Of a stretch of 64,000 nucleotides of DNA, positions 1-40,698 are shown piece by piece (within the stretch, counting starts at the first letter, position 1; each line of letters opens with the position of its first letter). Origin of the DNA: an uncultured virus (IMG/VR IMGVR_UViG_3300035188_001343) (lineage: Duplodnaviria > Heunggongvirae > Uroviricota > Caudoviricetes); the IMG/VR virus record IMGVR_UViG_3300035188_001343. One strand, written 5' to 3'. The translations under genes and the position numbers were made by a program. The notes beneath the pieces were generated by a model that ran no database searches, was not told where the DNA came from, and saw only the letters and a list, made by a program, of their open reading frames with translations.

Positions 1-1383
1 TCATCCTTATTCAACGCTTATCAAGAAGAAAAAGATGGTAAATTAATCAATGATAATGATAGATTTAATCATACCTCATTATATGCAGATAGTGGTGGAT
101 TACAGGTAATCACCGCAGGTAAAACCATCAATGATGAGGTAAAAGAAAAAGTTTATAAAACTCAAGCAATGTATTGTGATTATGCTATGACATTCGATGA
201 AATGCCTGTAAAAATTGTTAAGGAGTTAGCAACTGGTTCGGTTGCAGGTGCTGACGGTCAGGTATTCATAGATGAATTGATTTCGATTTCTGCAAAAAAA
301 TCAGCAAAACATATACAGAAGCAGATAGATATGTTTGAAGAATTAAAAACAAACACTAAAATAATGCCTATTTTACACGGATACAGTGGTGAGACATTCA
401 TTGAATATGCACAAACAATTTTAAATGAATTGCACCATATAGGGGATCATATTCAAGGTGTTGCCATTGCATCATTAAGAGGTCACGCAGACAATAAAGT
501 TGGTATGATGAAAGTATTCGATTATGTACCCAAAGTTATCAATAGTGAAAAAATACCATCGGAGTATAAAAAACATGTGCATTTATTAGGTGTGGGTGCA
601 CATCAACGATTACTACCTGCATTGATGATGGTTAAAAAGGGTATTTTACCTATTGAAAAACTATCATTTGATTCTACAAAAATTATGAAATCATACACTT
701 ACGGTAAAGTTTTTCAATCTGTAGAGGAACTTATTAACCCAAAAAATTTTAATCCTGTGTTGACATTAAAAAAGTATGATGATAAAACACAACCAAACAT
801 TAAACAATTCTACGAGAATGTACATAATTTATTTTTCGATTACGATGATTATGTTTTTTCAGATTGGGAAGATTTAGCGAAACATTCCCAGAATAATGGT
901 GAACCTATTACTATGGGAAAACAATTTGAAAAGTATGGTGTGGAATATGAACGAAAATATTTATCACAGGTTCGGTATGCAACCATGTACCACATTTATA
1001 CGTTCTTGTCCGTTTGTGAGGCATATTTAGATGATGAATTAACCATTGAAAACATTATGGGGTATAATGATAGTATTTTGCACATATTTCAAAAATTTGA
1101 TTCTGTTAGTACACATGAGCAATTTGCTGAAGTATGTGATTATTTTTATACTACTGCGAAAACTGGCAGAACCGATTTAAGAATTGTAAAATGTAAAACA
1201 TTAAAAGAATTTGAGGAACGATTCGAACATAACCGGGTTGATAGTTATTTGGAACTGGGTATTGAAAAAGACGTAGAAATTCTAAATGAGGAATTAAAAA
1301 AACCATGGATAAAAACCTCAATGAAACGAGCAAAGGTAGTTGATTATTCGAATGAAATTCATCCCAGTGATGGATTGTTTTGA
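1..1383 (+). CDS. TGT/DpdA-like guanine transglycosylase paralogue 1 (5'-truncated by window)
   Basis: Frame is open from base 1 (SSLFNAYQEE...LYADSGGLQ). Motifs DSGG, MTFDE, ILHG, HVHLLG, SFDS of the TGT barrel; clearly paralogous to 15230, 16952 and 30586. Confidence 0.8.
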   Translation, partial: SSLFNAYQEEKDGKLINDNDRFNHTSLYADSGGLQVITAGKTINDEVKEKVYKTQAMYCDYAMTFDEMPVKIVKELATGSVAGADGQVFIDELISISAKKSAKHIQKQIDMFEELKTNTKIMPILHGYSGETFIEYAQTILNELHHIGDHIQGVAIASLRGHADNKVGMMKVFDYVPKVINSEKIPSEYKKHVHLLGVGAHQRLLPALMMVKKGILPIEKLSFDSTKIMKSYTYGKVFQSVEELINPKNFNPVLTLKKYDDKTQPNIKQFYENVHNLFFDYDDYVFSDWEDLAKHSQNNGEPITMGKQFEKYGVEYERKYLSQVRYATMYHIYTFLSVCEAYLDDELTIENIMGYNDSILHIFQKFDSVSTHEQFAEVCDYFYTTAKTGRTDLRIVKCKTLKEFEERFEHNRVDSYLELGIEKDVEILNEELKKPWIKTSMKRAKVVDYSNEIHPSDGLF

Positions 1384-1440: not shown

Positions 1441-2214
1441 ATGATGGCTTTAACTGAGGTTTTCTGCTCAATTCAAGGGGAAGGTAGTAGTGCAGGCAAC
1501 ATTTCAATTTTCATTAGATTTTCGGGATGCAACTTTCAATGTCCGGGTTTTGGAGTGGAATATACAAACCCAAAAACGGGTGAAACGAAAAGGGGATGTG
1601 ATAGTTTTTATTCGGTTGATCCAGCATTTAAAAAAACATGGGATTATGTTGAAACTTTTGAAGAAATTGTGGATCTTGTTGATGCAATTATGCCAAAATA
1701 TCCAAAGGCACTTTTAACAAAACCCGATATTGTTATTACAGGCGGGGAACCAACAATAGCTTGGAAAAATCCAGAATTTCAAAAGTTGTTGGCTTATTAT
1801 ATATCAAGAAACCATGAGGTAACTATTGAAACTAATGCAAGTTTATACATTGAATTTAAAAGAGAATATCAAAGAAAAGTTAAATTTTCAATGAGTGTTA
1901 AACTAGCTGTTAGTGGTGAACCAGAACATAAAAGAATTAATATAGATAATATTACCAATATCGTTGAAAATTCACCACAAAGTTATTTAAAATTTGTAGT
2001 AGGTAAAGATAACATTGAAGAAACTGAAAAAGAAATTGATAGTATCTTAAAAGAGATACCAGTTTATTGTACGGTTTTTGTTATGCCTCTTGGGGACAAT
2101 AAAACTAATTTAGAATATAATGCAAGGTCGGTGATAGAAATGGCACTTAAAAAAGGATTTACGTATTCTGACAGATTACATATTCGTATATGGAACAATG
2201 AGATGGCTAGGTAA
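1441..2214 (+). CDS. queE: 7-carboxy-7-deazaguanine synthase (radical SAM)
   Basis: EVFCSIQGEG, FIRFSGCNFQC-x18-CDS, VITGGEP, IETN, SDRLHIRIW. Confidence 0.92.
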   Translation: MMALTEVFCSIQGEGSSAGNISIFIRFSGCNFQCPGFGVEYTNPKTGETKRGCDSFYSVDPAFKKTWDYVETFEEIVDLVDAIMPKYPKALLTKPDIVITGGEPTIAWKNPEFQKLLAYYISRNHEVTIETNASLYIEFKREYQRKVKFSMSVKLAVSGEPEHKRINIDNITNIVENSPQSYLKFVVGKDNIEETEKEIDSILKEIPVYCTVFVMPLGDNKTNLEYNARSVIEMALKKGFTYSDRLHIRIWNNEMAR

Positions 2215-2248
2215 AAACGGTAGTTTAAAAGAATTTTTTGGAAAAACT

Positions 2249-3009: not shown

Positions 3010-3030
3010 AAAAGTGTAAAGAAGGTATTT

Positions 3031-3660
3031 ATGTGTAGTATAATAGGCTCATTTTCAAAAGATAAATTTAAAGAATTGGTATTATTAAACCAACATAGGG
3101 GAACATTCTCCTACTCATTTTTAGTATTAAACCCAAAAAAATTAAAAATTGACACCCTTAAACAGGATTTTGGTTCGTTTGACTTAAATAGTATTGATGA
3201 TGCTACTGATGGTTATTATTTAGGACATTGCCAGGCACCAACAGGGGGTTTAATCAAAGATAAAGACAGGATTCATCCTGCAAAAATAGATGATGTATTT
3301 TTGTTTCATAATGGAATTATTAAACAAAAGGATGTTACTCGATTAAAAATGGAGCATGAAACATATGTTGAGTGGGATACCAAATTGATGCTCATGGAAA
3401 TTAAAAAAAATGGACTTACACCAACTTTGAATACCATTGATGGCAGTTTTGCTTGTGTTTATGTTGATGGTCTAAAATTTAGAATTTTTAGAAGTGCAGC
3501 CGGAACCTTATTTGTTGATGATTGTGGCAATATAAGTTCTACCAAATTTGAAAATTCTAATAGAATTGAACAAGGAAACGTATTTGTGTTGGATCTGTTA
3601 AATAATACGATGATAACAGAAGATAAATTTGTTTCCAAATCATCACCTTATTTTTATTAA
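3031..3660 (+). CDS. class II (Ntn) glutamine amidotransferase, stand-alone Gat-like domain
   Basis: N-terminal M-C nucleophile (MCSIIG), NQHRG, YLGHCQAPT, HP, LFHNGII, WDT, GSFAC. Confidence 0.85.
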   Translation: MCSIIGSFSKDKFKELVLLNQHRGTFSYSFLVLNPKKLKIDTLKQDFGSFDLNSIDDATDGYYLGHCQAPTGGLIKDKDRIHPAKIDDVFLFHNGIIKQKDVTRLKMEHETYVEWDTKLMLMEIKKNGLTPTLNTIDGSFACVYVDGLKFRIFRSAAGTLFVDDCGNISSTKFENSNRIEQGNVFVLDLLNNTMITEDKFVSKSSPYFY

Positions 3661-3679
3661 ATTAACCGAGATTTTAATT

Positions 3680-3907: not shown

Positions 3908-3929
3908 CACATAATATATGGGAGAAAAA

Positions 3930-4907: not shown

Positions 4908-4931
4908 TTTTAAGGTATTACTATATGTTTT

Positions 4932-4959
4932 AAAAAGTGCTCTTACGAGCACTTTTTTT
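4932..4959 (+). terminator. intrinsic terminator
   Basis: AAAAAGTGCTC-TTAC-GAGCACTTTTT followed by T tract. Confidence 0.8.
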
Positions 4960-4969
4960 GCAAAAACTA

Positions 4970-4998
4970 TTTACATCACACAACAAATAAAGTACAAT
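4970..4998 (+). promoter_or_regulatory. sigma70-like promoter
   Basis: TTTACA-17 nt-TACAAT. Confidence 0.55.
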
Positions 4999-5146
4999 AT
5001 AATATACTCGATATATTTTCAAAATGTAAAGGGTATGAAACATTATACCAGTTTAAAAGTAAGCAATTTAATAGGAGGAAGAGAAAATAGGGGTTTACCC
5101 GTGCTTACCTCACCCGTATATTGAACGGGGGTGTTTCTCTCATAAT

Positions 5147-5836: not shown

Positions 5837-5903
5837 TTGTAGTATCATTTACTTCATTTTATAGTATAATACCTTTTCTAAAACGATAATAGGTATTAAA
5901 CAT

Positions 5904-8546: not shown

Positions 8547-8553
8547 GAATCTG

Positions 8554-8589
8554 ATTATGGGGCAATCTAACTATAGATTGCCCCATAAT
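8554..8589. terminator. 16-bp perfect inverted repeat / terminator
   Basis: ATTATGGGGCAATCTA-ACTA-TAGATTGCCCCATAAT. Confidence 0.75.
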
Positions 8590-8657
8590 TTCTGTCAGAA
8601 GTATAAATTGTGGTATAATTTAATTTTAAATTTTAACAAATTGATTGATATAAAACT

Positions 8658-9014
8658 ATGAAACTTAAAGATTTAGTTGAAGCAACCGAATTGTCCTATG
8701 AAGAAAAATTGAAATCGGAAGAATATGTTGTTAAAATGAACATCCAAGATATTGTTCAGATACCAGAATGGCAGGAACTCAGAAGTTATTTTGTTGGTAA
8801 ATGGAAATCACAACCAGAAAAAAATTTACAAATGTTAAAAGATTTTGCTGGGGACTTAAAAAAATTATCCAACCGAAGATTGCGCATTATTCAAAATTAT
8901 GTTACCGGTTCAGCATTTCGTATTGGTATTATTGCTAATGAGGATATAAAAGAGTTTACTGAAGCGGTTCGTAAAGAGGTAGCAGATAGAAAAGCAGATG
9001 GGCGGTGGAAATGA
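8658..9014 (+). CDS. hypothetical protein with MKLxDL-E N-terminus
   Basis: ORF; N-terminus resembles the ORFs at 55217 and 55504. Confidence 0.6.
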   Translation: MKLKDLVEATELSYEEKLKSEEYVVKMNIQDIVQIPEWQELRSYFVGKWKSQPEKNLQMLKDFAGDLKKLSNRRLRIIQNYVTGSAFRIGIIANEDIKEFTEAVRKEVADRKADGRWK

Positions 9015-9484
9015 GAATAAATTGTATTGATGTTTCTGATTTGGCTGATCAACATTTGCGAGCAGAATGGTTGGAATTTTTAATGGTTGGTCCATATGTT
9101 AGGAGATCATTAAAATCGAAGAAAGGTATCTCATTTTCAAATTCAACTCGGTATGTGTTAGGGACAGGTCATGCGAGATTCTTCTATGATAAGTTAGGGT
9201 ATGTTGAAAATAGATACAAGCAAATCGAACATGAAATGCACGCAAGAGGATTTAAAACTAACCCAAATTTAGAGTTAAGTGATTTACCAAAAAATCTGTT
9301 TAATAGTTGGACACCAACAAAAGATGATAAAATACTCAATTTAAACCGCATAATTGCCAGGATATCTGATAAACCAAAATGGTATAAATTTAAAAATGCC
9401 CAGATGGAAGATTGGGTGGATTTTTATGAAAAAAGATATGATTTTACATACAATTATGATATAATACATTATGGTAAAAAATAA
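9011..9484 (+). CDS. denV: pyrimidine-dimer DNA glycosylase / endonuclease V
   Basis: MRIN...LADQHLRAEW; YVLGTGHARFFYDKLGY as in T4 DenV. Confidence 0.88.
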   Translation: MRINCIDVSDLADQHLRAEWLEFLMVGPYVRRSLKSKKGISFSNSTRYVLGTGHARFFYDKLGYVENRYKQIEHEMHARGFKTNPNLELSDLPKNLFNSWTPTKDDKILNLNRIIARISDKPKWYKFKNAQMEDWVDFYEKRYDFTYNYDIIHYGKK

Positions 9485-9507
9485 ACTTTAACTTAGAGAG
9501 AGTAAAA

Positions 9508-9939
9508 ATGTTTGCTAAATGGTATGAAGTAAATGGTGTAAAATGCCAGGGAAATGTAGAGAAAAATGTGGCGGAAATGATGGTTGAAAATAATCACTTT
9601 TTCTCTCGTGGAAAAGCAATTAAAACTCCGTTTGGTAACTATACACCAGATTTTGATTGTGACACCTATTTTGTTGAAGTGAAAACTTTACATAGTTGGT
9701 TACAAGCTTTAGGTGTGACAAGCTTATTGGAAAACGCAAAAAAAGATGAATTTGCTAAATTATCAAACAATTCTCAACAAAAAATGGAATGGGTTAATGA
9801 AAATGTTAAACCCGTTTATGTCTATATTGAAATTTCTGAAAATTCAAAAAAATTCAAAGATGTTTTCGAACCATCTCATACCTTATCAACAATCAAAGGT
9901 AATATCCAACAGTTACGACAATTTTTGACAACCATGTAA
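9508..9939 (+). CDS. PD-(D/E)XK nuclease-like protein
   Basis: YTPDF...FVEVK. Confidence 0.6.
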   Translation: MFAKWYEVNGVKCQGNVEKNVAEMMVENNHFFSRGKAIKTPFGNYTPDFDCDTYFVEVKTLHSWLQALGVTSLLENAKKDEFAKLSNNSQQKMEWVNENVKPVYVYIEISENSKKFKDVFEPSHTLSTIKGNIQQLRQFLTTM

Positions 9940-9997
9940 AAAATTGTAAAAAATTGTAAAATATCATAAAATAATTAATATTTACAAGGAATATAAA

Positions 9998-10762
9998 ATG
10001 CTCAAAGATGTATTATCAACATTACCATCATTAGATGAAAATAAAAGAGTAGTTTCAGTTTTAAGTGGTGGTTTAGATTCTACTATTGTAACTTACACAT
10101 TAGTTGAAAAATATGGAAAAGATAATGTAGTAGCATTATCATTTAACTATGGACAAACACATTCCAACGAACTTGATAAAGCGGTTACTACATGCAAAAA
10201 ATTGGGTATTGCACACCACGTTATCGATATTAGTTTTTTAGGTGATGTTATTAAAAATGTGTCAGCATTATCAGATGCTGGAAATGTTGAAATGCCTACC
10301 ATCGAGGACATTTTAGGATTAGCAACACCACCTACTTATGTGCCATATCGAAATTTATTGATGTTTTCTATTGCTCTGTCATTTGCAGAAAGTAATAACG
10401 CACAATTTGTGATGAATGGTTTACAGGCACATGATGAATATAGTTATTGGGACACAACTAAAGAATTTGTTAGTCGAATGAATAAAATCTCAGAGTTGAA
10501 TAGGGAGCAATTTATCGAAATTGTTTCACCATTTGTTGAATTTAGTAAATATGAGGAAATTTCGGTTGGTAAAGAACTTAACGTTCCGTGGATTGATACC
10601 TGGACATGCTATACTGGTGAACACGGTAATGGTGCTTGTGGTAAATGCCCTTCTTGTTCAGAACGCATTATGAATTTCGCAAAAGCTGGTATTATGGATG
10701 ATTGTCTATATGAGATTGAAATTCCATGGGATAGATTGATTGAGGAAAATTCAGAAATATAA
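9998..10762 (+). CDS. queC: 7-cyano-7-deazaguanine synthase
   Basis: SGGLDS, FNYGQ, TYVPYRN, TWTCY-x7-CGKCPSC zinc motif. Confidence 0.95.
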   Translation: MLKDVLSTLPSLDENKRVVSVLSGGLDSTIVTYTLVEKYGKDNVVALSFNYGQTHSNELDKAVTTCKKLGIAHHVIDISFLGDVIKNVSALSDAGNVEMPTIEDILGLATPPTYVPYRNLLMFSIALSFAESNNAQFVMNGLQAHDEYSYWDTTKEFVSRMNKISELNREQFIEIVSPFVEFSKYEEISVGKELNVPWIDTWTCYTGEHGNGACGKCPSCSERIMNFAKAGIMDDCLYEIEIPWDRLIEENSEI

Positions 10763-10764
10763 GT

Positions 10765-12201
10765 ATGAGTTTAGCAGTTATAACTAAGACCATTGGTGAT
10801 ATTGATGAATTTAAGAATCTTTACTTCGATAATAAAAAGACACTGGTAGAAATTTTGGATACTTATAATTTACCTCACAAATATGCGGATAATTTGCGAA
10901 AATTTGCATTAGGGTTGGGATTTCCAAAAAAATCTGATATTCACAAGGATGTGATCAACAGTATTGATGTGGTAGAATTTAAAAAATTATATTTAAATGA
11001 TCTGATGACTGTAAAAGAATTAGCCACACATTTTAATGTTGGGCGATTTACCATTGAAAAATTAATCACAAAAAATAAATTAAACAAGAGTAAAGACGAA
11101 TGGTTGAAAACTGTTAAAAGATCAATACGTCAATCTTATGGTGTGAATAATGTTTCCGAACTTGAGTTTGTGAAAAAATCGAAATCAAAAAACACATTCA
11201 TTCAAAATTTAGATATTTCTGAATTCAAAAAAAAATATAAGGAATTAGGTAATACAGAATTAGCAAAACATTACAATATAAGTACACATTATGTTTCTAA
11301 ATTATTACACCGATTTGGTGTTGAAAGAAATGAACGTGTTAATTCTTTAGAATTGGAAATTAAAAATTGGTTAATTCATGGACTAGGTATTATCGACCTT
11401 AAAGTAAATGATAGGGTGGTGTTGTCTGGAAAAGAAATTGATTTTTTGTCACCAACTAATAATTTTGGTATTGAATTTAACGGTATGTTTTGGCACAATG
11501 ATTTGATCGTGAATGAAACTTATCATCTCGTTAAAACAAAAAAAGCTACGGAGAAAGGTATCGATTTGTACCACATATTTGAATTTGAATGGATAACAAA
11601 AAAGGAAATCATTAAGTCAATAATTAGACAAAAATTAAAATTGACACCGAGAACAATTCATATAAATCAGTGTAATGTGCAATGGATTACAAAGAATGAA
11701 AAAGAAAAATTTTTGACAGAAAACCATATATTTGGTGACGATGATTCTGAAACACATATTGGTTTATTTTTCAACACTGAATTAGTTGAAGTATTAACTA
11801 TCGGTAAATCCTACCAATACCAATATACAATTTTCAATTCAGTGAGAAAATTGAATGTCTATGTTAATGGTGGTATTGAAAAATTATGGAGGTTTTTTGT
11901 GAAATATCATGATCCATCAACGGTTGTGGTGTATGAGGATATTAGATTTTGTCCATCAAACTCACAGTATGAAGAATTGGGGTTCATTTTGTCTAATTAT
12001 ATTCCCCCTGAATCATATTACTTCAACAATAGAAACCCATTAAAAATTTTTTCATCTAAAAAATTTAAAAAAGACCCCCACCATTATACCGAAAATTTCT
12101 TGTATAATTCAAACAAAACTGAAATAGAAAATATGCGAGAAAATAATTATTTACGATTTTGGGATTGTGGCAAAAAAGTACTTGTATGGAACAAAAAATA
12201 G
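10765..12201 (+). CDS. free-standing homing-endonuclease-like protein
   Basis: HTH-like repeats, YGVNNVS, EIDF...GIEFNGMFWH nuclease motif, C-terminal WDCG. Confidence 0.7.
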   Translation: MSLAVITKTIGDIDEFKNLYFDNKKTLVEILDTYNLPHKYADNLRKFALGLGFPKKSDIHKDVINSIDVVEFKKLYLNDLMTVKELATHFNVGRFTIEKLITKNKLNKSKDEWLKTVKRSIRQSYGVNNVSELEFVKKSKSKNTFIQNLDISEFKKKYKELGNTELAKHYNISTHYVSKLLHRFGVERNERVNSLELEIKNWLIHGLGIIDLKVNDRVVLSGKEIDFLSPTNNFGIEFNGMFWHNDLIVNETYHLVKTKKATEKGIDLYHIFEFEWITKKEIIKSIIRQKLKLTPRTIHINQCNVQWITKNEKEKFLTENHIFGDDDSETHIGLFFNTELVEVLTIGKSYQYQYTIFNSVRKLNVYVNGGIEKLWRFFVKYHDPSTVVVYEDIRFCPSNSQYEELGFILSNYIPPESYYFNNRNPLKIFSSKKFKKDPHHYTENFLYNSNKTEIENMRENNYLRFWDCGKKVLVWNKK

Positions 12202-12255
12202 TGTTTTAAGTATCAAAAACAATTTAAAAAAATTAAACTAAACAAATTTTGGAGT

Positions 12256-12861
12256 ATGACAATGCAATTAGTAGTTAATATCGATTCATCAAATTTTGGT
12301 ATAACCGTTGAAAAATTATTTGAAGAATTATCTGTTGATGATAAACGAGATTTAGCAAAACAAATGTTACATAAATTTTTAGAGGAACCTGTAAATATGG
12401 AAAGACAGGTTCGAGAACAAATGGTTATAAATGAGTTAATGAAGCAAAACGATTACAATGGTAAACCTACATTTACTGATGAAAACTCCGCAAGGTATAG
12501 CTATAAATTCAAAGAAATAATGAGGGATTTTAAGTCATCAAAAGAAACTATGATTGAAAAAACCACGGCGGAAATGACAAAATTGTTCTCAAATTTGGTA
12601 ACAGATATGGTTAATGAAAGTCCTGAATGTAAACTACAAGCGGAAGTAATTCAGAAATCTGTTGAGGATGCTTTCCCTGAAATGGTTCAAATTGCATTGA
12701 CTAATGCTGTTGCTACTCAATTACAAAACGCAACTTTTGCTATTAGTCAACAAAATTTATTATCCGATAGAGTTACTAGATTAACTAATAACATTAGATA
12801 TACTTTGAACACTCGTGGTATGAATATACAGGATCATGAAATACCTTCCGGAAATTGGTAA
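12256..12861 (+). CDS. hypothetical helical protein
   Basis: GGAG SD, 201-aa ORF. Confidence 0.6.
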   Translation: MTMQLVVNIDSSNFGITVEKLFEELSVDDKRDLAKQMLHKFLEEPVNMERQVREQMVINELMKQNDYNGKPTFTDENSARYSYKFKEIMRDFKSSKETMIEKTTAEMTKLFSNLVTDMVNESPECKLQAEVIQKSVEDAFPEMVQIALTNAVATQLQNATFAISQQNLLSDRVTRLTNNIRYTLNTRGMNIQDHEIPSGNW

Positions 12862-12866
12862 AAAAT

Positions 12867-13598
12867 ATGAGTAAAGATTTTGATTTGCAGTTTGGTGGTG
12901 AAATTATTGAAAAACCGACAGTTAAGACTACCAACAAAGGGGATGAAAAACTTATTAAAAGTAAGGATTGGATACCCCCATCTGATATGAATTCAGATGA
13001 AAAGGTTTTAAGACATCCCATTTTTGAAAAAGCTTTTTCACAGATTTTAAAACAATGGAAACCAAAAAGTAATGTTGCTTTTTTAAGTTTGTGTACAAGT
13101 TCAAGACCATATTCAAAATCTACAAAATATCAGAAATTCATTGAACGATTTGGTGATCATGTGGATTTTGTAGTAGTATCAAATGGAGGTTTTATTCCAC
13201 CCGATTATTGGAATAGTTGGCCGTTTAAAAACTATGATTCACCTCACGAACCAGATGGTTCGGTAGATGAATTATATCAAGAGGTCATGTATGATAGGTT
13301 GGTGAGATTTTTTAATACTTTTGATTATGAATATGTAATTGCTAATTTTCGACCAAATCTTAGAAATTGTAAACCAGCAACAGAGGGATTACAGTTGATG
13401 AAGGAAACGGGTAGAATTACAGATTTTGCAGTTATCCCCGATAAAGAATTATACGATAAAGCTGCAGAAGATGGTTGGAGGGGTAAAAATGGTTGTGGGG
13501 CAATTTTCCCTGATTTACATCTTTTTATTATCACAGAATTAGAAAACAAAGCGAAATCTTGGTCTAATTATAGATCACCCTCAAATAGTCTTTTTTAA
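12867..13598 (+). CDS. ArcS/DUF5591-like protein paralogue 1
   Basis: LCTSSRPYSKS and SNGGFIP...WPFKNYD resemble the ArcS PCSxxKPYSxS and PLGxVP..YP...YD motifs. Confidence 0.6.
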   Translation: MSKDFDLQFGGEIIEKPTVKTTNKGDEKLIKSKDWIPPSDMNSDEKVLRHPIFEKAFSQILKQWKPKSNVAFLSLCTSSRPYSKSTKYQKFIERFGDHVDFVVVSNGGFIPPDYWNSWPFKNYDSPHEPDGSVDELYQEVMYDRLVRFFNTFDYEYVIANFRPNLRNCKPATEGLQLMKETGRITDFAVIPDKELYDKAAEDGWRGKNGCGAIFPDLHLFIITELENKAKSWSNYRSPSNSLF

Positions 13599-13753
13599 CA
13601 AATAGTTTGTTGCAATTTAAAAAAATATTATATCCCAGAAAATTAGTAATTTTTTCATTACCAATTTTTAAAGATATAATATTTTTTTTCAAAATAAATT
13701 CACATTGGCTGATATTGAATTATTATAGTATAATAATTAAAAAAGGATAAATT

Positions 13754-14005
13754 ATGCTAATTAATTTTTGTTTTACTCTACTAATAATGATTACTAACAC
13801 TATATTAGTAGTGTTAACGGCATGTACAATTTATCTATTGTTTTGTACATTCATTCTTATATTTTGCTTAATTTTATTAAACTCATCGCAAGATTATGAT
13901 GGTTTGGAATTATACGCATACAACATATATGATTGGTTTATTGAAAAAAACAAACCTACTATGAAATTATTAGGTGTTTCCCTAGATGATGAATCTCTTA
14001 CTTGA
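13754..14005 (+). CDS. small membrane protein
   Basis: AGGA SD, hydrophobic N-half. Confidence 0.5.
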   Translation: MLINFCFTLLIMITNTILVVLTACTIYLLFCTFILIFCLILLNSSQDYDGLELYAYNIYDWFIEKNKPTMKLLGVSLDDESLT

Positions 14006-14016
14006 AAATAATTACT

Positions 14017-14487
14017 ATGAAATCAATATCATTAACTAAAATTCTGTTTGGTTTTTTAATCGCTACAACATTTACGAATGTTTATGCTGAGGACGATTTT
14101 TCATTAACACCAGAACAAATAGAAGTGTTGAAAAAGGCTAATGAATTAAACCCAATTGAACCATGGAATCCTAAAAAAATATGGTCATCAATTATTAATG
14201 ATGATGGCACATTTGATTATGGTGATAAAGTTCCTAAAATTCCAGAAGTGCAGTCTATCCCTCAAAAAACTATCAACCATACCAAGGTGAAACAGTCAAA
14301 CCCACCATTAGCAAAAATAACCCCTGTAGTAACTCCACCTCGAAAAAATGTAGTGGTGAAAAACAGTGAACCATCAAAAATATTGATGCCGACCCAAATT
14401 AAAAAATCAACAACACCATTAGTAGTGGCGACAGTTAAAAAGATAGATATGCCGAAACCAACAATCAGCAAAAATAACATAAAATAA
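14017..14487 (+). CDS. secreted Pro/Lys-rich protein
   Basis: Signal-peptide-like N-terminus ending VYA. Confidence 0.55.
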   Translation: MKSISLTKILFGFLIATTFTNVYAEDDFSLTPEQIEVLKKANELNPIEPWNPKKIWSSIINDDGTFDYGDKVPKIPEVQSIPQKTINHTKVKQSNPPLAKITPVVTPPRKNVVVKNSEPSKILMPTQIKKSTTPLVVATVKKIDMPKPTISKNNIK

Positions 14488-14505
14488 ATAAGATTTGAGA
14501 ACATC

Positions 14506-15162
14506 ATGGAAAAAATAGTAAAAAATAAATCAATTTTGGTTGGTGATGAGAAATTAGTTAAAAAGAAAAATTGGATTCCCTTGGATGAAATGAACACCGA
14601 TGTTAAAATTCTCACACATGAACTGTTTGATACTATTTTTAATAAGATTGTACGTGAACATAAGCCAACACACAACATAGCATTTATTTCATTATGTACT
14701 GCAACAAGACCATATCATTTGGGTCGAAAATGGAAAAAATTTGTTTCTGAATTTAGTAACAAAGCTGATCTAATTGTTATTTCGAGTGGAGGAGTAATTC
14801 CTCAAAATTATTGGTGTTCCTTTCCATATCAAAATTATGATGGTGATTCCGCAAAAAGTGCTAATGGGTTATACACTGAAAAATTAGAAAAAAGATTGGT
14901 AAAATTTTTCACTGTACACAACTATGATTATGTAGTAGCTAATTTTCGCCCGAAAATTAGAAACACTCCAGTAGTAAAAAAAGTATTTGACGATTTAAAA
15001 GTTAAAGGGATTATTAAAGATTTTGTGGTTGTTCCAGATGAAGCAGCATATCAAGAACTACAAAATCGAGGATTCCCTGGTGGAAAAATGTATCCCGATT
15101 TAGATGAATTAATCTTTGAAAAAATAAAACAATCTGTTGATAATTATATCGATATATTGTGA
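14506..15162 (+). CDS. ArcS/DUF5591-like protein paralogue 2
   Basis: LCTATRPYH, SSGGVIP...FPYQNYD, YVVANFRP; aligns by eye along its length with 12867..13598. Confidence 0.6.
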   Translation: MEKIVKNKSILVGDEKLVKKKNWIPLDEMNTDVKILTHELFDTIFNKIVREHKPTHNIAFISLCTATRPYHLGRKWKKFVSEFSNKADLIVISSGGVIPQNYWCSFPYQNYDGDSAKSANGLYTEKLEKRLVKFFTVHNYDYVVANFRPKIRNTPVVKKVFDDLKVKGIIKDFVVVPDEAAYQELQNRGFPGGKMYPDLDELIFEKIKQSVDNYIDIL

Positions 15163-15173
15163 ATATTAAAATT

Positions 15174-15226
15174 AAAAAATCTCCAAAGTTATTGTATAAT
15201 TTAAAATAAAACTTTGGAGATTTTTT
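15174..15226 (+). promoter_or_regulatory. 17-bp inverted repeat enclosing a TATAAT box and pairing the SD of the downstream gene
   Basis: AAAAAATCTCCAAAGTT-attgtataatttaaaataa-AACTTTGGAGATTTTTT, ATG at 15230. Confidence 0.7.
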
Positions 15227-15229
15227 TTC

Positions 15230-16885
15230 ATGTTAGAACCAAATGCGAGTATCCCAGTTAATGGGGTTATGTTTGACTATGTGTCAGGTTCATTAACCCC
15301 ATTTTTCAAATTAAAACACAAAGATCCAAAAATAGCAATCAACAACTATAATGATTTTGTTGGTCTAATGAACTATACCAAATCAATGTTGAAAGGTTAT
15401 TTTTCATGGAGCACACTGTTTAACGCTTTCCAAGAAGAAAGTGATGGAAAATTTCTTACAGAAAATAATAAATTAAACCATTTATTTACCTATTCTGATA
15501 GTGGTGGATTACAGGCTGCCAGAAGAAATATGATTATTGATGATGTATTGAAAGAAAGAATTTATACGGTGCAACATAACTATTCGGATATTGCAATGAC
15601 TTTCGATGAAATGCCATTTAAAAACATATCTGTTAATGCCGGTACTGCAATTGTTGGTACTTCATCCAGATGTTATATCCGAGATTTAATACAATCTACC
15701 GCAGAACATTCTGCACAACATATTAGAAAACAAATTGAGATGTTTGATTCATTTGGATCGAATACGAAGATTGTTCCCATCATACATGGTTTTCGACCAA
15801 GCAAAGGTTATTTTCGTGGAGAAACCGACAACACTTATGTCGATTATGCAAAATATATGTTTGATAAAATTGACAATTCATCCAAGCATATTCACGGGTT
15901 GAGTATTGCTTCATTAACCACACATCCAGATAATCGAGTTGGTATTTTAAAAGTTATTGATTATGTTCCTAGAACATTAGCTAGTAAAGATATTCCCGAT
16001 GAAAATTTAGAACATGTACATTTGTTAGGGTTAGCCAGTCCGCAGAGAATTTTACCTGTTCTAGCTCTTGTTAAACATGGGTTGATTGACAAAAGAGTTA
16101 AACGAATTTCATTCGATTCTACTGCAATTACGAAGGCTTATACTATTGGGCGGGTATTCAGAAATTATGACGAATATAAAAATGTTGAACAAAATAAAGA
16201 TTTTCACCCAGAATTAACTTTACAAAATTATAAAAACCCCAATTCTAAAAATGTCAGACAATACTATCAACAGGTACATAAGTATTTTCAGAATTATGAA
16301 AATTACCCTTTTAACAGTTGGGAAGAATTAGCTGATCACTCACCAAATAATGGTGATAGAAGACCAGCTGGTGTACAGGCTAAAGAAAAGGGTCGTGAAT
16401 TTGAATTAAAAATGTTGGCACAGGTGAGAATTAGTAGTATGTATCTCACTTATGTTTATCTCGATACATTAGAAAGATATATTAGTGGTGATTTAACGAT
16501 AGATGATTTGGCTCATTATAACACAGATATTGCAGCAATGTATCATGATATTGAACGAAACGCAACCAACATGCATGATATTTTTGAAATTGTGGAAAAA
16601 CATTATCAAAAAGTAAAAGCCGAAATTGATAAATCTGTAGATACTCTCGATGAATTTGATAATGAGCTTAAAAAAGCCACATCCATTCAAACAACAGGTC
16701 ATGAGGAAGCAAATGTTTTATTTTGTGATGAAGGTAAAGAAAAAGCCAGTGAAACGGTAAAAAAAATGAAAGAACATAATTATGAAATGACCAGAGGTAG
16801 AACAAATTTCAAACGTACTCAACGAAAAGCACATAATGATACTGACAATATAAGCGCAGTGGATATTACTAGTGAATTATTTTGA
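15230..16885 (+). CDS. TGT/DpdA-like paralogue 2
   Basis: LFNAFQE, SDSGGLQ, MTFDE, IIHG, HVHLLG, SFDS. Confidence 0.8.
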   Translation: MLEPNASIPVNGVMFDYVSGSLTPFFKLKHKDPKIAINNYNDFVGLMNYTKSMLKGYFSWSTLFNAFQEESDGKFLTENNKLNHLFTYSDSGGLQAARRNMIIDDVLKERIYTVQHNYSDIAMTFDEMPFKNISVNAGTAIVGTSSRCYIRDLIQSTAEHSAQHIRKQIEMFDSFGSNTKIVPIIHGFRPSKGYFRGETDNTYVDYAKYMFDKIDNSSKHIHGLSIASLTTHPDNRVGILKVIDYVPRTLASKDIPDENLEHVHLLGLASPQRILPVLALVKHGLIDKRVKRISFDSTAITKAYTIGRVFRNYDEYKNVEQNKDFHPELTLQNYKNPNSKNVRQYYQQVHKYFQNYENYPFNSWEELADHSPNNGDRRPAGVQAKEKGREFELKMLAQVRISSMYLTYVYLDTLERYISGDLTIDDLAHYNTDIAAMYHDIERNATNMHDIFEIVEKHYQKVKAEIDKSVDTLDEFDNELKKATSIQTTGHEEANVLFCDEGKEKASETVKKMKEHNYEMTRGRTNFKRTQRKAHNDTDNISAVDITSELF

Positions 16886-16951
16886 TTTTTTTAGAGTCAC
16901 TACCCAACACATTTTAGTATAATTAATTTAAAATAATTAACACGGAAATTT

Positions 16952-18463
16952 ATGAAAACTATCAAAAATAAGGAGGTGCCTGTACGTCTACAATTAGTAC
17001 TTTCGGGAGTTCCAGGTTATTTCAAGTTAAGAAGTAAACATGATGATTTATTTAAAATAACTGCAATTTCATTACGATGTGGGTTAGATTACATTGAAAG
17101 TAAATTGCCAGGTAATGTGGATATACATGGGTTATATAATGCTTATACCGAAGAAAATATGGCTAGACGTGCTGCAGATGATTCAATAAACGAACCATTT
17201 ACTAAAATTTTTCCAAATGGGTTACATGCAGATTCAGGTGGGTTACAAATGGTTACTCTTGGTAAAGGAACTATTACCGCATCTGATCGATTAAAAATTT
17301 ATAAAACCCAGGCAACTTATTCACATTATGCAATGAGTTTTGATGAAATTCCCTCATTGATACAAGATGATGTTAGATATTACCTACCCCATATTGTTAT
17401 GGAAAAAGGTATTCAGAGTGGGGCAAATTTAAAAGAACAGTACGATTATTTTGAAACAATCGATACAAACTGTAAAATCATCCCAATCGCACAAGGTTGG
17501 GGAATCGATGATACAAATACATTTGCAAAAGGATTATTTGGTCAACTAACCAAGGAGCAGTATGATAAAGTTGATGTAGTAGCAACGGGTTTTCCAACAA
17601 CCGCAATTTACGCCACTGCAAAACGTGTGTATGATATGTTTAAAGCGACTGAAATTCCAGTTAAAGCAAAGAAACATGTACATCTATTGGGTGTCACTGG
17701 ATTTAAGCGATTAATTCCAGCATTAATAATGATTAAAAATGGTTTCACCCCACAATTAGAAATTTTGAGTTTTGATTCAGTTACGATCACGATGAGTTAT
17801 GTAATGGGGAATCAAGTTCCTACAGTGGAAAACTTTTTAACAGGACAAACTAAAATAAAACTCGGTAAGAAAAGAAATTCTACAGTAGAAAAATATTGGC
17901 AGGATATTTATGATTTTTGGAAAGATGACCCAAACTTTATTTTTGATGATTTGGATGATCTAATCGACCACAGTTATTATAATAAAAAAGGTTTAAACAG
18001 TGGTTTTCAACAATATGAACATTACTTACAAGCCGATGAAAATGGTAATTTTACAGATGAAAACAAGATTATTGCAGATTTGCATTTTACAAAGGTGTTG
18101 AAACAAGAACAGTATTACATTTTATATCAGGTACATAATTATGTCCAAATATTAGAATCATTTTTAGAAGATAAGATAAAACTTGAACATATATTTGATG
18201 GTAAAAATTTAGAAATATTTTCTGCATTGGAAAAAGTTAAAACGGATGAAGAATTCACCGATTGGTTTTCATATGTACAAAAAGTTACTGGGTTTAAAGT
18301 TCCAGTATTGGATGGAAATCACTTAAATAATATTGACATAGTACAAACTTTATTTGGTGTGGATATGGTTACTGAGGAAAGAGAACGTAAAAAACAACCT
18401 GCGAGAATTACCAAGCCTGTCAAAACTCAAGATGATACGACTACTACAAATTTATTATTTTAA
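16952..18463 (+). CDS. TGT/DpdA-like paralogue 3
   Basis: LYNAYTE, ADSGGLQ, MSFDE, IAQG, HVHLLG, SFDS. Confidence 0.8.
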   Translation: MKTIKNKEVPVRLQLVLSGVPGYFKLRSKHDDLFKITAISLRCGLDYIESKLPGNVDIHGLYNAYTEENMARRAADDSINEPFTKIFPNGLHADSGGLQMVTLGKGTITASDRLKIYKTQATYSHYAMSFDEIPSLIQDDVRYYLPHIVMEKGIQSGANLKEQYDYFETIDTNCKIIPIAQGWGIDDTNTFAKGLFGQLTKEQYDKVDVVATGFPTTAIYATAKRVYDMFKATEIPVKAKKHVHLLGVTGFKRLIPALIMIKNGFTPQLEILSFDSVTITMSYVMGNQVPTVENFLTGQTKIKLGKKRNSTVEKYWQDIYDFWKDDPNFIFDDLDDLIDHSYYNKKGLNSGFQQYEHYLQADENGNFTDENKIIADLHFTKVLKQEQYYILYQVHNYVQILESFLEDKIKLEHIFDGKNLEIFSALEKVKTDEEFTDWFSYVQKVTGFKVPVLDGNHLNNIDIVQTLFGVDMVTEERERKKQPARITKPVKTQDDTTTTNLLF

Positions 18464-18481
18464 TTAGTGAGATAAACCTTT

Positions 18482-18673
18482 ATGATTGAAACTATTGAAA
18501 CTGCCGATTATATAAAATACAAATGTGAAAATTGCACTAAATTCTTTTTGATTGGTTCGGGAATTATAGCAGAAATACAACATAATAAAATTTCAAGTGA
18601 ATCGTGTGATTCTTTTACAAAATTAACCGCATTATGTTCGAGTTGTGTATCAAAATTAAAAATTGAACTATAA
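18482..18673 (+). CDS. small Zn-finger-like protein
   Basis: CxxC...CxxC. Confidence 0.4.
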   Translation: MIETIETADYIKYKCENCTKFFLIGSGIIAEIQHNKISSESCDSFTKLTALCSSCVSKLKIEL

Positions 18674-18684
18674 CTTTTTAAATA

Positions 18685-19095
18685 TTGATTGGAATGAAAA
18701 ATATGACCGCAAATAATATTGATATAATTGGACAAAGATTATGGTTTATCGAAAATTATAATATTCACCATATTGTAATAGTGAATTACTTTTATGATAA
18801 TCTTATGAAAAAAATAGTATTTGAATACTTGACTGCCATTGATGACATTTTAATAGTTCCAGTTATTAAGCAAACAGCAATATATGGTAGTGTAGAGGAC
18901 ATCATGTTTAACTTTGTGTTTTCTAAAACTAAAGAGGAAGCAATCATTAAATTAGCAAAAATATTTACAACTTATTCAACTGTTGTAGATGAACAGGACA
19001 ATTTTTGTACAGAATTAAATGTTAAATTACATTTTTCAACTTTGAAAGATTTTATAGCCTGTGTTACAAATCAATTCCCAGAAAAATTTATCTGA
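18685..19095 (+). CDS. hypothetical protein
   Basis: ORF; ends FPEKFI, similar to the ends of 24930 (YPECII) and 32281 (FPDLAAM). Confidence 0.5.
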   Translation: MIGMKNMTANNIDIIGQRLWFIENYNIHHIVIVNYFYDNLMKKIVFEYLTAIDDILIVPVIKQTAIYGSVEDIMFNFVFSKTKEEAIIKLAKIFTTYSTVVDEQDNFCTELNVKLHFSTLKDFIACVTNQFPEKFI

Positions 19096-20215
19096 TTTCT
19101 AATCTAAAGTTGTAGCCACTATTAATGACTGCCAAAAATTTTAAATTATTCACAACGGTATCACAATTAACAGTGTAACTAGATTTTACTTCAATAATTA
19201 AATTTTCTTTCGGTATGTAAATATCTGGAAAATATCGATGGCAAACTCCATATATTTCATACCAAAATTCTGGCATTCTACTATGATCGGTTATGATGTC
19301 ATCAAAAGAATATCCCTGTTCCTCCAACTCCGACAAAATAATAGGTTCGTACCCTTGAACTAACGATATTTCCCCTGATTTCCAACAATATTCCTTTGTA
19401 TTATAAGATGTTTGTAAATACTTTTCAAATATTTTAGGTGATTGCATTGCGTGTTCAACACCATATTTTTTTAAACATGTTTTTCTACCTTTTTCTCTAA
19501 ACTCTTTTACCTGTAATATATGTTTCACACCATATTTCTTTAAATTGGTTTCCACTATTTTTTCCTTGACTTCCGAACTTTGTGATGAATGTTCAAATCC
19601 GTATTTTTTTAAATTGGTTCTTTTAAGTTTTTGCTTGACTTCCTCTGTTCGCATAGGATGTGTAACACCATAATTTTGTAAACTGGTTTCTATTTTTTTA
19701 ATTTTGATTCTATCTAATTTTGAAACATTTTCAACTCCAAATCGGTGCATACATTGATTCCTATATTTTTCTTGAATTTCTTCATTTTGCATAGGATTTT
19801 CAACACCATATTTTGTTAAATGTGTTTTTTTGATTTTTTCTTTAATTTCGACATTCTGAAAAATATGTTCAACCCCATATTTTGCAAGATTAGTAGCTTT
19901 TATTTTTTCATGTGATGTGGGTAAATGCATGATGTTTTTAACACCATACTTTCTTAAATTACTCAATTCCATTGAGTGTAACCAACAACACGTTTCTTTA
20001 AATCCTTTAAAAATCGAAATGAATTTTGTTTCATTGTTACAGTTTTGATGCTGGCAAATATTTTTTACTAGTGGGTGATAATATTGGTATAATTCAATGT
20101 CGGTTGTTATTGTAGGGTTCATTAAATAATCCAGGCATTCAAGTTTCCATTTTTGAAAATTTTTCGTAAATCCTTGATTTTTGGGTTTGATGAAATATCT
20201 GTTAAAATTATCCAT
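19088..20215 (-). CDS. free-standing homing-endonuclease-like protein with KYGV repeats
   Basis: About 8 repeats T-x2-KYGVxH/N; C-terminal RYFPDIYIPKENLIIEVK. Confidence 0.75.
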   Translation of the reverse strand: MDNFNRYFIKPKNQGFTKNFQKWKLECLDYLMNPTITTDIELYQYYHPLVKNICQHQNCNNETKFISIFKGFKETCCWLHSMELSNLRKYGVKNIMHLPTSHEKIKATNLAKYGVEHIFQNVEIKEKIKKTHLTKYGVENPMQNEEIQEKYRNQCMHRFGVENVSKLDRIKIKKIETSLQNYGVTHPMRTEEVKQKLKRTNLKKYGFEHSSQSSEVKEKIVETNLKKYGVKHILQVKEFREKGRKTCLKKYGVEHAMQSPKIFEKYLQTSYNTKEYCWKSGEISLVQGYEPIILSELEEQGYSFDDIITDHSRMPEFWYEIYGVCHRYFPDIYIPKENLIIEVKSSYTVNCDTVVNNLKFLAVINSGYNFRLEIR

Positions 20216-26533: not shown

Positions 26534-26650
26534 ATTATCCCTCGTGTAAATAACTACCACATATTCCAATTTTTCAACATATTTTACATATAACACTTAA
26601 TTTTTGTATAATTAATTACTTATTATTAACAACTATTAGGAAGAAAAAAT

Positions 26651-30585: not shown

Positions 30586-31929
30586 ATGTTAAATAAATTA
30601 AAATTAGAGTATGTTGAGTCAGCTTGGATTATTTTGTATCAACTTACCAATAGCGATACAAAACTTTTAAAGGAAACAACTGATCTATTTCAAAAAAATT
30701 TGAAATATATGTTAGAAAAAATTGACAACAACGATCTAATATTTTCGGGATTATTTAATGCATACACCGAAGATAAGAATGTTGAAAGATTAAAAACTGT
30801 ATTGGATTTTAATAAAACGAATGGTTTACATACATTTCAATATGCTGATAGTGGCGGATTACAAATTGTCAATACCGGTGCAGTGGTAAACGATGAATTG
30901 AAACGGAAAATATACACATATCAGGCAGAAAACTCAAATTTTGCATTTTCGTTTGATGAAATCCCTGCATTCCGAAATCAAGATAAAACAAGAACTTATG
31001 TCGATGAATGGGTAAAACCTTATGCTATTAAAGCTGGAATAAATTTACAAGAACACATTGATATTTTTAAAAAATTAAAAACGAAAACAAAGTTAATACC
31101 AATCATTCAAGGATTTGATTATTCCCAAATTGAATCCTATACAAAAAATATGCTAAATCAAATTAAAAAACCAGATCTTAAAGAAATTGGTGCAATTGCG
31201 TGTGGAAATGCACATGGAAATGGTTTTGGCACTTTGGATAACTTTATGGCATTACAAACTATGGATATTCCAGTAAGTTTAAAAAACCACACACATCTAT
31301 TAGGAGCAAGTGGTATAGATCGCATTGCTCCTATTCTAACTGTAGTTAGAAATGGGTTGATAACCGATATGGATAGATTATCATTCGATAGTTCATATCA
31401 TACTCAATCCTATGTATATGGTGAGGTACAACGAAATACCCAACATCTCATGAATAATATAAAAATTCATCGTTTGGGATTGAACCGAAATCAATATGTT
31501 GAAAATAGGTTTTTAGAAATGATTGATTTTTGGAAGGATTGTAATACATTCAATTTTATAGATTTAGAAGATGTGTTTTGCCATTCCATTTATGATGATG
31601 CAGGTATAAATTCACCAGCAAAACAATTAAAATCAAGAACGGATGTTGACTATATCAAAAATATAAATGTAATTCAAATGCATATTATGTTCAACATATA
31701 CAAATACATAACATTGTTATATGATTTCATTGAAGACAGAATTGGTTTTTATGATTTATTCCATAATGACAAATATTTTATGTTTTATAGTGCCTTGGCA
31801 AATGTAAAAACCTATGGAGAATACATTGACTGGCGTGAGGATGCAATCAAAAAATTTAAATTTGTTCGTGCAACCAACATTATGAAATTTGATAATTCAA
31901 AAAATACCGAAACAGATTTTTTATTTTAA
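30586..31929 (+). CDS. TGT/DpdA-like paralogue 4
   Basis: LFNAYTE, ADSGGLQ, FSFDE, IIQG, HTHLLG, SFDS. Confidence 0.8.
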   Translation: MLNKLKLEYVESAWIILYQLTNSDTKLLKETTDLFQKNLKYMLEKIDNNDLIFSGLFNAYTEDKNVERLKTVLDFNKTNGLHTFQYADSGGLQIVNTGAVVNDELKRKIYTYQAENSNFAFSFDEIPAFRNQDKTRTYVDEWVKPYAIKAGINLQEHIDIFKKLKTKTKLIPIIQGFDYSQIESYTKNMLNQIKKPDLKEIGAIACGNAHGNGFGTLDNFMALQTMDIPVSLKNHTHLLGASGIDRIAPILTVVRNGLITDMDRLSFDSSYHTQSYVYGEVQRNTQHLMNNIKIHRLGLNRNQYVENRFLEMIDFWKDCNTFNFIDLEDVFCHSIYDDAGINSPAKQLKSRTDVDYIKNINVIQMHIMFNIYKYITLLYDFIEDRIGFYDLFHNDKYFMFYSALANVKTYGEYIDWREDAIKKFKFVRATNIMKFDNSKNTETDFLF

Positions 31930-40681: not shown

Positions 40682-40698
40682 ATTTTACTCTCAAACCA

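Follow-up and report, generated by a model that had tools for sequence, protein, structure and literature searches.

Two diverged ArcS2 paralogues lie among five DpdA2-like genes in a probable 7-deazaguanine DNA-modification cluster of an uncultured virus

We analysed a 64,000-nucleotide stretch of DNA from an uncultured virus of the Caudoviricetes (IMG/VR record IMGVR_UViG_3300035188_001343; the window, meaning this whole stretch) and found that it encodes two diverged paralogues of the DUF5591 family, ArcS2-A and ArcS2-B (A and B below). We consider it probable that both are ArcS2 proteins, stand-alone catalytic cores (C1/DUF5591) of archaeosine synthase, belonging to a 7-deazaguanine DNA-modification cluster. 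Their predicted activity, by analogy with relatives, is conversion of dPreQ0 or preQ0 to 2'-deoxyarchaeosine (dG+). The cluster holds QueE, a stand-alone glutamine-amidotransferase-like protein (Gat), QueC, the two ArcS2 genes, which are of different clades, and five DpdA2-like paralogues (DpdA_1 to DpdA_5); QueE, Gat, QueC and the DpdA2-like genes all lie within a span of at most 31 kb or just upstream of the window (Table 1). The combination of ArcS2 with DpdA2 has already been described as a system. New here are the doubling of ArcS2, the five-fold expansion of DpdA and a shared C-terminal tail.

A first-pass annotation, made from the sequence alone, had read A and B as duplicated stand-alone domains resembling ArcS/DUF5591, and this reading is confirmed. 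Both genes are intact frames on the plus strand, and their products are identical at 84 of 208 positions (40%; BLASTP E 1e-61). The four motifs that had been listed as common to the pair are present in both: the GDEKL.K.K.WIP region (GDEKLIKSKDWIP in A and GDEKLVKKKNWIP in B), LCT..RPY (LCTSSRPY and LCTATRPY), the GG.IP..YW.S.P..NYD region (GGFIPPDYWNSWPFKNYD and GGVIPQNYWCSFPYQNYD) and ANFRP. Matches to PF17884 (DUF5591) exceeded the gathering score of 26 bits for A (39.2 bits, E 8.2e-10, residues 59-166) and for B (40.1 bits, E 4.2e-10, residues 52-165). The NCBIfam models of archaeosine synthase subunit alpha (NF040592/NF053620) matched both weakly, with 17.4-25.1 bits against cut-offs of 440 and 600, and the matches were confined to model positions ~227-392 rather than covering the full length. 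Each protein consists of the core domain alone: the only other Pfam row was a sub-threshold match of A to RRN9 (13.8 bits against 25, E 0.077), and there was none for B.

Structure prediction gave one compact alpha/beta domain for each protein. The AlphaFold2 model of A has a predicted local distance difference test (pLDDT) score of 83.7, falling below 50 in the first 23 and the last 4 residues, and that of B has a score of 92.7. The sole significant Foldseek match of A in the PDB was AF0587 of Archaeoglobus fulgidus (2q07), a DUF5591 protein, at E 1e-5 (next match E 0.07). Alignment of B with 2q07_A by VIA-align gave Z 15.4 and a root-mean-square deviation of 2.8 Å over 139 residues at 22% identity (next match Z 6.9), and a phmmer search of PDB sequences with B returned one match, again 2q07 (E 4e-4). 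AF0587 is the sole solved structure with this fold; unlike A and B, its deposited 306 residues include the canonical motif PCTARKPY..S..H, and a function is absent from the entry.

All 36 columns that are invariant in an alignment of 16 family members are conserved in both copies, among them C76 (A; C64 in B), R80-P81-Y82, K87, YD and the SNGG.IP block. The phage clade and the canonical proteins have the Cys, PY, SN.G.IP and P..YD blocks in common. The motif around the Cys differs: it is SLCTxxRPYxx[SG]xK[WY] in the phage clade and PC-X3-KPY-X2-S-X2-H in canonical ArcS. Neither copy has the strict form, A reading LC-TSS-RPY-SK-S-TK-Y and B reading LC-TAT-RPY-HL-G-RK-W. The Cys and PY are kept, and the replacements are Pro to Leu, Lys to Arg, His to Tyr or Trp and, in B, also Ser to Gly.

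The ArcS2 family is modest in size, its members mostly 180-260 amino acids (aa) long. A word-seeded search with A found 15 relatives, and an exhaustive profile search found 329 representatives at E <= 1e-3, 147 at <= 1e-10 and 76 at <= 1e-30. With B, tblastn against 50,697 phage records matched five, namely Vibrio phage nt-1 (two record copies) and the related phage CZ01, all three with 47% identity across 96% of B, and two weakly matching Synechococcus phages. The nt-1 ArcS2 (VPFG_00169, YP_008125320) is 47.4% identical to B over 96% of B (E 9e-59) and 36% identical to A (E 2e-55). In a tree of 94 rows (a quick IQ-TREE run supported by the Shimodaira-Hasegawa-like approximate likelihood ratio test, SH-aLRT, only), A falls in a clade of nine rows (SH-aLRT 99), every one of which has an LF end, and B groups with nt-1 ArcS2 (SH-aLRT 84). 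The two clades are sisters (joint SH-aLRT 90). Because A and B belong to sister clades, the pair is either old or assembled by transfer, and is not the result of a recent tandem duplication.

We compared the cluster with 20 other viral and 14 metagenome loci that carry ArcS2; all counts refer to the DNA examined at each locus. The metagenome loci came from a scan with the clade alignment, a scan with A alone having found nothing. Two DUF5591 genes occurred in one other locus of this set (L046), a 261-kb contig of which 20.7 kb was examined. Its ArcS2-A, DpdA_3 and DpdA_4 are 72%, 85% and 77% identical to those of the window. The slot between its ArcS2-A and DpdA_3 (11133-12083) is filled by a different DUF5591 protein of 316 aa, with LPCTKSRPYY and a match to the family profile at E 5e-12. 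That protein joins an N-terminal half of ~160 aa without known identity to a DUF5591 core with a more canonical motif. A further related locus (L047, 55% identical) has the order Gat-QueC-ArcS2-A-DpdA_3 and no second copy.

Part of the cluster lies beyond the window. The nearest record, a 306-kb viral record (G001), is identical base for base to window positions 1-18800, where G001 ends, and the two joined give 351.5 kb of an incomplete genome. Matches to a major head protein, a gp55-like sigma factor, UvsX-like and gp32-like proteins and DenV suggest that the source is an uncultured T4-like jumbo phage of at least 351 kb. A megablast search of a phage collection with window positions 12000-19000 gave zero matches.

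The five DpdA2-like paralogues all belong to phrog_10773 and are mutually 22-40% identical. The E values to this family are 9.1e-35 for the in-window part of DpdA_2, whose frame is open at the window start, and 3.4e-59 for its full length, 3.5e-49 for DpdA_3, 6.1e-45 for DpdA_4 and 3.7e-48 for DpdA_5. Aligned with nt-1 DpdA2, which has been tested experimentally, all five keep the catalytic motifs DSGGLQ, FDE.P, H.LG and S.DS. The Pfam TGT model did not match these neighbours. DpdA_3 and DpdA_4 are ~30% identical to DpdA2-type proteins of VH7D/KVP40-like Vibrio phages, some of them annotated TGT-like, the likeness of DpdA_4 extending over 53% of its length. Other ArcS2-bearing loci have one DpdA or none in the DNA examined. 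The first-pass annotation had placed the duplicated domains directly upstream of two TGT paralogues. That pair, DpdA_3 and DpdA_4, is confirmed (26% identity, E 3e-26), although the cluster total is five. The position holds for B, which is separated from DpdA_3 by 68 nucleotides (nt), and not for A, which lies 907 nt from B with two small unrelated open reading frames (ORFs) between them. These ORFs (13754-14005, 83 aa and very hydrophobic; 14002-14487, 161 aa, its start resembling a signal peptide and its body rich in Pro and Lys) have no family match and are probably an unrelated insert.

Genes for ArcS2, QueC and Gat recur together. The order QueE-ArcS2-QueC-Gat-x-DpdA2 was found in seven of the 20 other viral loci (L026-L031, L035), and one of the 14 metagenome loci, a short contig (L048), has QueE-ArcS2-QueC and the start of Gat. 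In nt-1 the order is QueD-like, ArcS2, FolE, DpdA2, QueC and then a Gat-like gene, ORF392 (VPFG_00173; L001 12675-13283), whose product shares 29% identity with the Gat of the window (E 3e-23). The Gat-like proteins of this phage, of nt-1 and of the marine cassette start with MC and end in a conserved NPY[FYW]F-type tail. Since the three genes travel together, they are more likely to encode steps of one pathway than alternatives, and they look like parts of one pathway. The biochemical frame of the first-pass annotation is broadly right; its suggestion of up to three candidate routes to derivatise preQ0, with Gat as one of them, is not supported by this arrangement. QueC consumes ammonia. Given also that Methanocaldococcus jannaschii ArcS uses NH4+, Gln or Asn directly (PMC11298593), the simplest role for Gat would be to supply ammonia to QueC, ArcS2 or both. 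The nt-1 gene VPFG_00173 has zero occurrences in the DS1 pathway table and supplement text of Cui et al. (PMC10516641).

In the pathway that we propose, QueE and QueC would make preQ0, the host possibly supplying the FolE and QueD steps, and the stand-alone Gat would probably release ammonia from glutamine. The DpdA2-like transglycosylases would replace guanines of the phage DNA with the 7-deazaguanine base. ArcS2 would then turn the preQ0 nitrile into an amidine, most likely through attack by the invariant Cys of SLCTxxRPY, after which ammonia or an amine would be added; this chemistry is modelled on nt-1 ArcS2 and archaeal ArcS. The nitrile-activating enzymes QueF and QueF-L form a Cys thioimide, and Cys attack is proposed by analogy with them. 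We infer the roles of the Cys and of Gat, and likewise a substrate that would be either DNA or the free base. The expected product, dG+ or a close derivative, would shield the DNA from restriction.

A and B do not represent a new kind of protein, since the stand-alone form is already named: Cui, Hutinet et al. (NAR 2023, PMC10516641) identified the nt-1 protein, 47% identical to B, as the core catalytic domain of archaeosine synthase (PF17884), tested it and renamed it ArcS2. In Table 3 of that paper, nt-1 DpdA2 alone gave 926 and 1607 dPreQ0 per 10^6 nt in E. coli plasmid DNA; with the ArcS homologue added, there were 0-11 dPreQ0 and 4-7 dG+ per 10^6 nt. Virion DNA of nt-1 contains dPreQ0, dG+ and dADG at low levels (PMC6884629). 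Among the matches listed, Cui et al. was the sole paper with phage DUF5591 proteins, and likewise with ArcS2 in the same sense. Its sheet DS1 has ArcS2 in three of 91 genomes, one each, with two accessions in no DpdA-column cell (PMC10516641). The literature text searched, including a paper on DpdA in jumbo phages, has no mention of an ArcS2 doubling or a five-fold DpdA expansion.

The nt-1 system resembles the cluster described here in having a stand-alone DUF5591 core of ~220 aa with the degenerate motif SLCTxxRPY..K[WY]; its neighbours, too, are DpdA2, QueC and a Gat-like gene that stands alone. Its motif has the same replacements relative to canonical ArcS as A and B, except that the Ser is kept. 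It differs in having one ArcS2 and one DpdA2, compared with two and five here, and in having FolE and QueD beside ArcS2, of which none was found here; A, moreover, has the LF tail and belongs to the sister clade. Canonical archaeal ArcS shares the homologous C1 domain and the addition of an amine to the preQ0 nitrile. That archaeal ArcS adds an amine to preQ0, as the first-pass annotation had stated, is supported by PMC11298593: the Thermococcus kodakarensis enzyme adds lysine to preQ0, acts also on the preQ0 nucleoside and 5'-monophosphate, and needs RaSEA to form G+. Only the canonical enzyme has an N-terminal TGT-like domain, C2 and PUA, with tRNA G15 as substrate, the PC-X3-KPY-X2-S-X2-H motif and mostly a RaSEA partner. 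A and B lack the TGT-like, C2 and PUA domains and the strict motif, and a RaSEA partner was not found. Enterobacteria phage 9g also combines a glutamine amidotransferase with QueC in a phage dG+ pathway (PMC6884629), as Gat-QueC, whereas here Gat and QueC are separate genes and ArcS2 is also present. In the Sulfolobus viruses STSV1 and STSV2 a DNA transglycosylase of the TGT superfamily likewise adjoins a DUF5591 core; unlike A and B, these cores keep the canonical motif, and they occur as single pairs with DpdA1-type or very divergent DpdA branches (PMC10516641). STSV2 DNA contains dCDG, not dG+ (PMC10516641).

A C-terminal tail of the type [ST][DN]xLF is present in all five DpdA proteins, in A and in the phage RNase HII, and is absent from B (tails in the window at 1369-1383, 13584-13598, 16871-16885, 18449-18463 and 31915-31929). 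The 351.5 kb contain 322 non-overlapping ORFs of at least 100 aa, of which 14 have an LF end. These include six of the seven modification enzymes, which comprise five DpdA and two ArcS2 (Fisher p 1.4e-8, with paralogues that are not independent), and C-terminal [STD][STDNEG]xLF was observed eight times compared with 0.11 expected. The tail is retained even where the preceding 50-150 residues no longer align. It is kept in orthologues (SDSLF and TDSLF; TSSLF in the DpdA_3 orthologues of L046 and L047, which are 85% and 46% identical; MDSLF in the DpdA_4 orthologue of L046) and in nine of nine A-clade members. B is the nt-1-type copy, and A is a member of a sister clade that gained the tail.

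The RNase HII (G001 149405-150019, minus strand, 204 aa; PDB 3o3g E 1e-29, aligned residues 8-187) ends in TTDILF. Besides the modification enzymes, the only carriers of the pattern are this RNase HII and one member of a gene family ending in LPEKIKNLFF. The latter multigene family has at least 13 ORFs in G001 (135714-141591, 157270-158088, 188164-190335, 193143-194593, 201604-202422 and 12293-13060), of ~210-470 aa, and all share a conserved C-terminus of the type LP.K[IL]K.[LI][FL]F, which differs from the polar LF tail. The closest database relatives of the RNase HII end in x[DN]xLF in 27 of 28 cases, with TDFLF, the pentapeptide of DpdA_1 and DpdA_5, five times and TNLLF, that of DpdA_4, once. 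A QxxLF end (QPSLF, QGTLF and so on) occurs in 32 of the 120 RNase HII relatives listed, all of them more distant ones. In archaea, RNase HII has a C-terminal tail that binds PCNA. In bacteria, QL[S/D]LF, or more generally QxxLF, is the beta-clamp-binding motif and is C-terminal in PolC (PMC12309361).

Because the tails are alike in three unrelated enzyme families, and a clamp motif occupies the same site in cellular RNase HII, the tail can be read as a docking peptide for the sliding clamp, a reading that we hold tentatively. The corresponding picture, of guanine exchange and nitrile-to-amidine conversion tethered to the replisome and acting on new DNA, is conceivable, though we would not expect it. 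The five DpdA proteins would then have different sequence preferences and the two ArcS2 proteins different donors, giving a dense, possibly mixed pattern and maybe an undescribed amidine adduct. Several observations count against clamp docking. The phage tail lacks the Gln, and E. coli RNase HII is reported not to be clamp-bound and to ride on RNA polymerase (PMC11253446). There was no match in G001 to gp45 (PF09116, PF02916) or the beta clamp (PF02768), and no clamp among 87 mid-sized G001 ORFs compared with PHROGs, a scan outside which three locus-border ORFs and all ORFs of 271-339 aa lay. Two clamp candidates in the window matched nothing among PDB sequences, and an annotated gp45 is absent from the first 50 kb of nt-1. 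An LF end is absent from the gp55-like sigma factor, polymerase fragments, SSB, ligase and UvsX-like proteins; therefore the tail is not general to the replication proteins of this phage. Complex prediction for DpdA_3 with A, scored at 0.00 with controls not run, speaks neither for nor against an association.

Several points also weigh against the proposal that A and B make dG+. As the strict ArcS motif is not kept, catalysis may differ from that of archaeal ArcS. dG+ may not be the main product, judging from the 4-7 dG+ formed by nt-1 ArcS2 while 926-1607 dPreQ0 were lost. The proposal does not explain a need for two ArcS2 copies. FolE (PF01227) and QueD (PF01242) had no match in G001 or in the Pfam-scanned window ORFs. 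Most Euryarchaeota require a RaSEA partner for the step from the lysine adduct to G+, and RaSEA (TIGR01210) had no match in the window ORFs or in G001. These negatives are weak, since the same type of genome search with PF04055 missed the known QueE, and the genome is incomplete. The window's sole radical SAM ORF scores best as QueE: its top NCBIfam matches are QueE models, all below the cut-off (72.4 bits against 260), with the RaSEA model not listed among them, and it has Fer4_12 and Radical_SAM matches in Pfam.

The lack of a RaSEA match leads to an alternative in which the ArcS2 copies add an amine, lysine or another, to dPreQ0 and a bulky, undescribed amidine base stays in the DNA, the two paralogues maybe using two donors. 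The ArcS enzymes of T. kodakarensis, Thermoplasma acidophilum and Methanosarcina acetivorans transfer lysine and need RaSEA for G+ (PMC11298593). Six of 22 longer DUF5591 proteins scanned carry a radical SAM fusion whose best NCBIfam match is RaSEA TIGR01210 (87.6-132.1 bits, cut-off 212), which makes the two-step route of ArcS and RaSEA look ancestral; these fusions (P0128, P0138, P0148, P0151, P0155 and P0158 of the representative library) have the canonical ArcS motif. The nt-1 test, in which nearly all dPreQ0 was lost with almost no dG+ among the targeted bases (PMC10516641), and the differences between A and B within the catalytic motif fit an adduct as well. On the other side, dG+ has been measured both in nt-1 DNA and in the reconstituted E. 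coli system (PMC6884629, PMC10516641), the M. jannaschii enzyme shows that ArcS can take ammonia, Gln or Asn directly, and the conserved Gat near QueC and ArcS2 fits ammonia supply. Overall, we think such an adduct unlikely. The possibly undescribed base suggested by the first-pass annotation fares in the same way: the bases found in nt-1 DNA are all described (PMC6884629), while the absence of a RaSEA match and the loss of dPreQ0 with little dG+ speak for it.

The presence of the LF tail on A only raises the possibility that one copy is the enzyme and the other a non-catalytic partner or adaptor, either with the tail of A bringing B or DpdA to the replisome or as an A-B heterodimer. An unlike DUF5591 pair does recur in two of the three related genomes seen, counting the 316-aa LPCTKSRPYY protein in the L046 slot. 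However, every invariant family residue is present in both copies, so that neither looks degenerate, L047 has ArcS2-A alone, and there is a single copy in nt-1 and in 20 of the 20 other viral loci. A division of labour of this kind is quite unlikely.

Hydration of the nitrile to the amide, giving dADG as bacterial DpdC does, instead of an amidine, is improbable as the activity of A and B. It was raised for phage ArcS by Hutinet et al., who found dADG in nt-1 DNA (PMC6884629), and replacement of the His of the canonical motif would suit it; the same authors note that dADG may come from oxidation of dPreQ0 (PMC6884629), and the 2023 test of nt-1 ArcS2 reported dG+ (PMC10516641). Action on host or phage tRNA, the substrate of canonical ArcS, is very improbable for proteins of 218 and 243 aa that have no PUA or C2 domain and DUF5591 as sole family match, in a window with zero tRNA genes and beside DpdA2-type neighbours, which insert bases into DNA (PMC10516641).

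Table 1. Features of the cluster; positions are those of the window unless G001 is named.
Feature	Position	Strand	Remarks
DpdA2-like paralogue 1 (DpdA_1)	G001 285997-287322, just upstream of window		441 aa, tail TDFLF
DpdA2-like paralogue 2 (DpdA_2)	1..1383	+	cut by window start; 518 aa in full in G001; tail SDGLF
QueE-like radical SAM enzyme (CDG synthase)	1441..2214	+	phrog_2076 'QueE-like' E 4.2e-51
Stand-alone class-II (N-terminal Cys) glutamine-amidotransferase-like Gat	3031..3660	+	209 aa, starts MC, ends SSPYFY
QueC (preQ0 synthase)	9998..10762	+	254 aa; PF06508 E 1.4e-54; TIGR00364 176 bits vs cut-off 150.3
ArcS2-A, stand-alone DUF5591 (archaeosine-synthase core)	12867..13598	+	243 aa, motif LCTSSRPYSKSTKY, tail SNSLF
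ArcS2-B, second stand-alone DUF5591 protein	14506..15162	+	218 aa, motif LCTATRPYHLGRKW, without LF tail
Terminator-like strong hairpin and T run	15174..15226	+	between ArcS2-B and DpdA_3
DpdA2-like paralogue 3 (DpdA_3)	15230..16885	+	551 aa, tail TSELF
DpdA2-like paralogue 4 (DpdA_4)	16952..18463	+	503 aa, tail TNLLF
DpdA2-like paralogue 5 (DpdA_5)	30586..31929	+	447 aa, tail TDFLF

The window is AT-rich (28-36% G+C) and densely coding, with the plus strand predominant. Gat has sub-threshold matches to GATase_6/7 and a match to phrog_12378 (E 5.5e-32), and is separated from QueC by 6.3 kb. The block between them looks like an insertion from its position, as Gat and QueC are far closer in L046 and L047. 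It contains an 880-aa ORF (5904-8546) with a weak, sub-threshold match to GmrSD_N (DUF262; E 3.8e-4) and further unknown ORFs at 3629-5836. The hairpin downstream of B has a minimum free energy of -19.3 kcal/mol (z -5.99), and 0 of 200 shuffles fold as well. A pattern scan for promoters and terminators did no better than on shuffles in this AT-rich DNA and left the hairpin unflagged because of its long loop.

There were several other genes of note in the window. Intein/Hint domains match in a topoisomerase II/IV subunit A, a helicase and a DnaB-like helicase (26651-28483; 39809-41676, minus strand; 45673-46857), and several homing endonucleases are present (10765-12201; DUF7487 ORFs at 19088-20215 and 25385-26596, both minus strand). 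At 58136-62119, Hen1 (N-terminal domain E 5e-70, plus a methyltransferase) adjoins a Pnkp-like kinase-phosphatase-ligase, a bacterial-type RNA repair pair in a phage. NMNAT-like and NAMPT genes (NAD salvage), a nucleoside 2-deoxyribosyltransferase-like ORF and a GroEL-type chaperonin are found among 62201-63999, 53209-53661 and 20980-22614.

Phage 7-deazaguanine modifications are a main escape route from restriction and CRISPR, and no enzyme of the pathway is less well understood than ArcS2, whose sole published test left most of the substrate unaccounted for. If the tail is a decoration of this lineage and both copies make dG+, A and B are ordinary new members of a described family. Two diverged ArcS2 proteins together with five DpdA proteins nevertheless provide a natural comparison of donor and sequence specificity, and the conserved ArcS2-QueC-Gat cassette suggests how ammonia may be supplied. 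Docking through the tail, if true, would be the first hint of a coupling between post-replicative base exchange and replication, and could explain the high modification levels in some phages.

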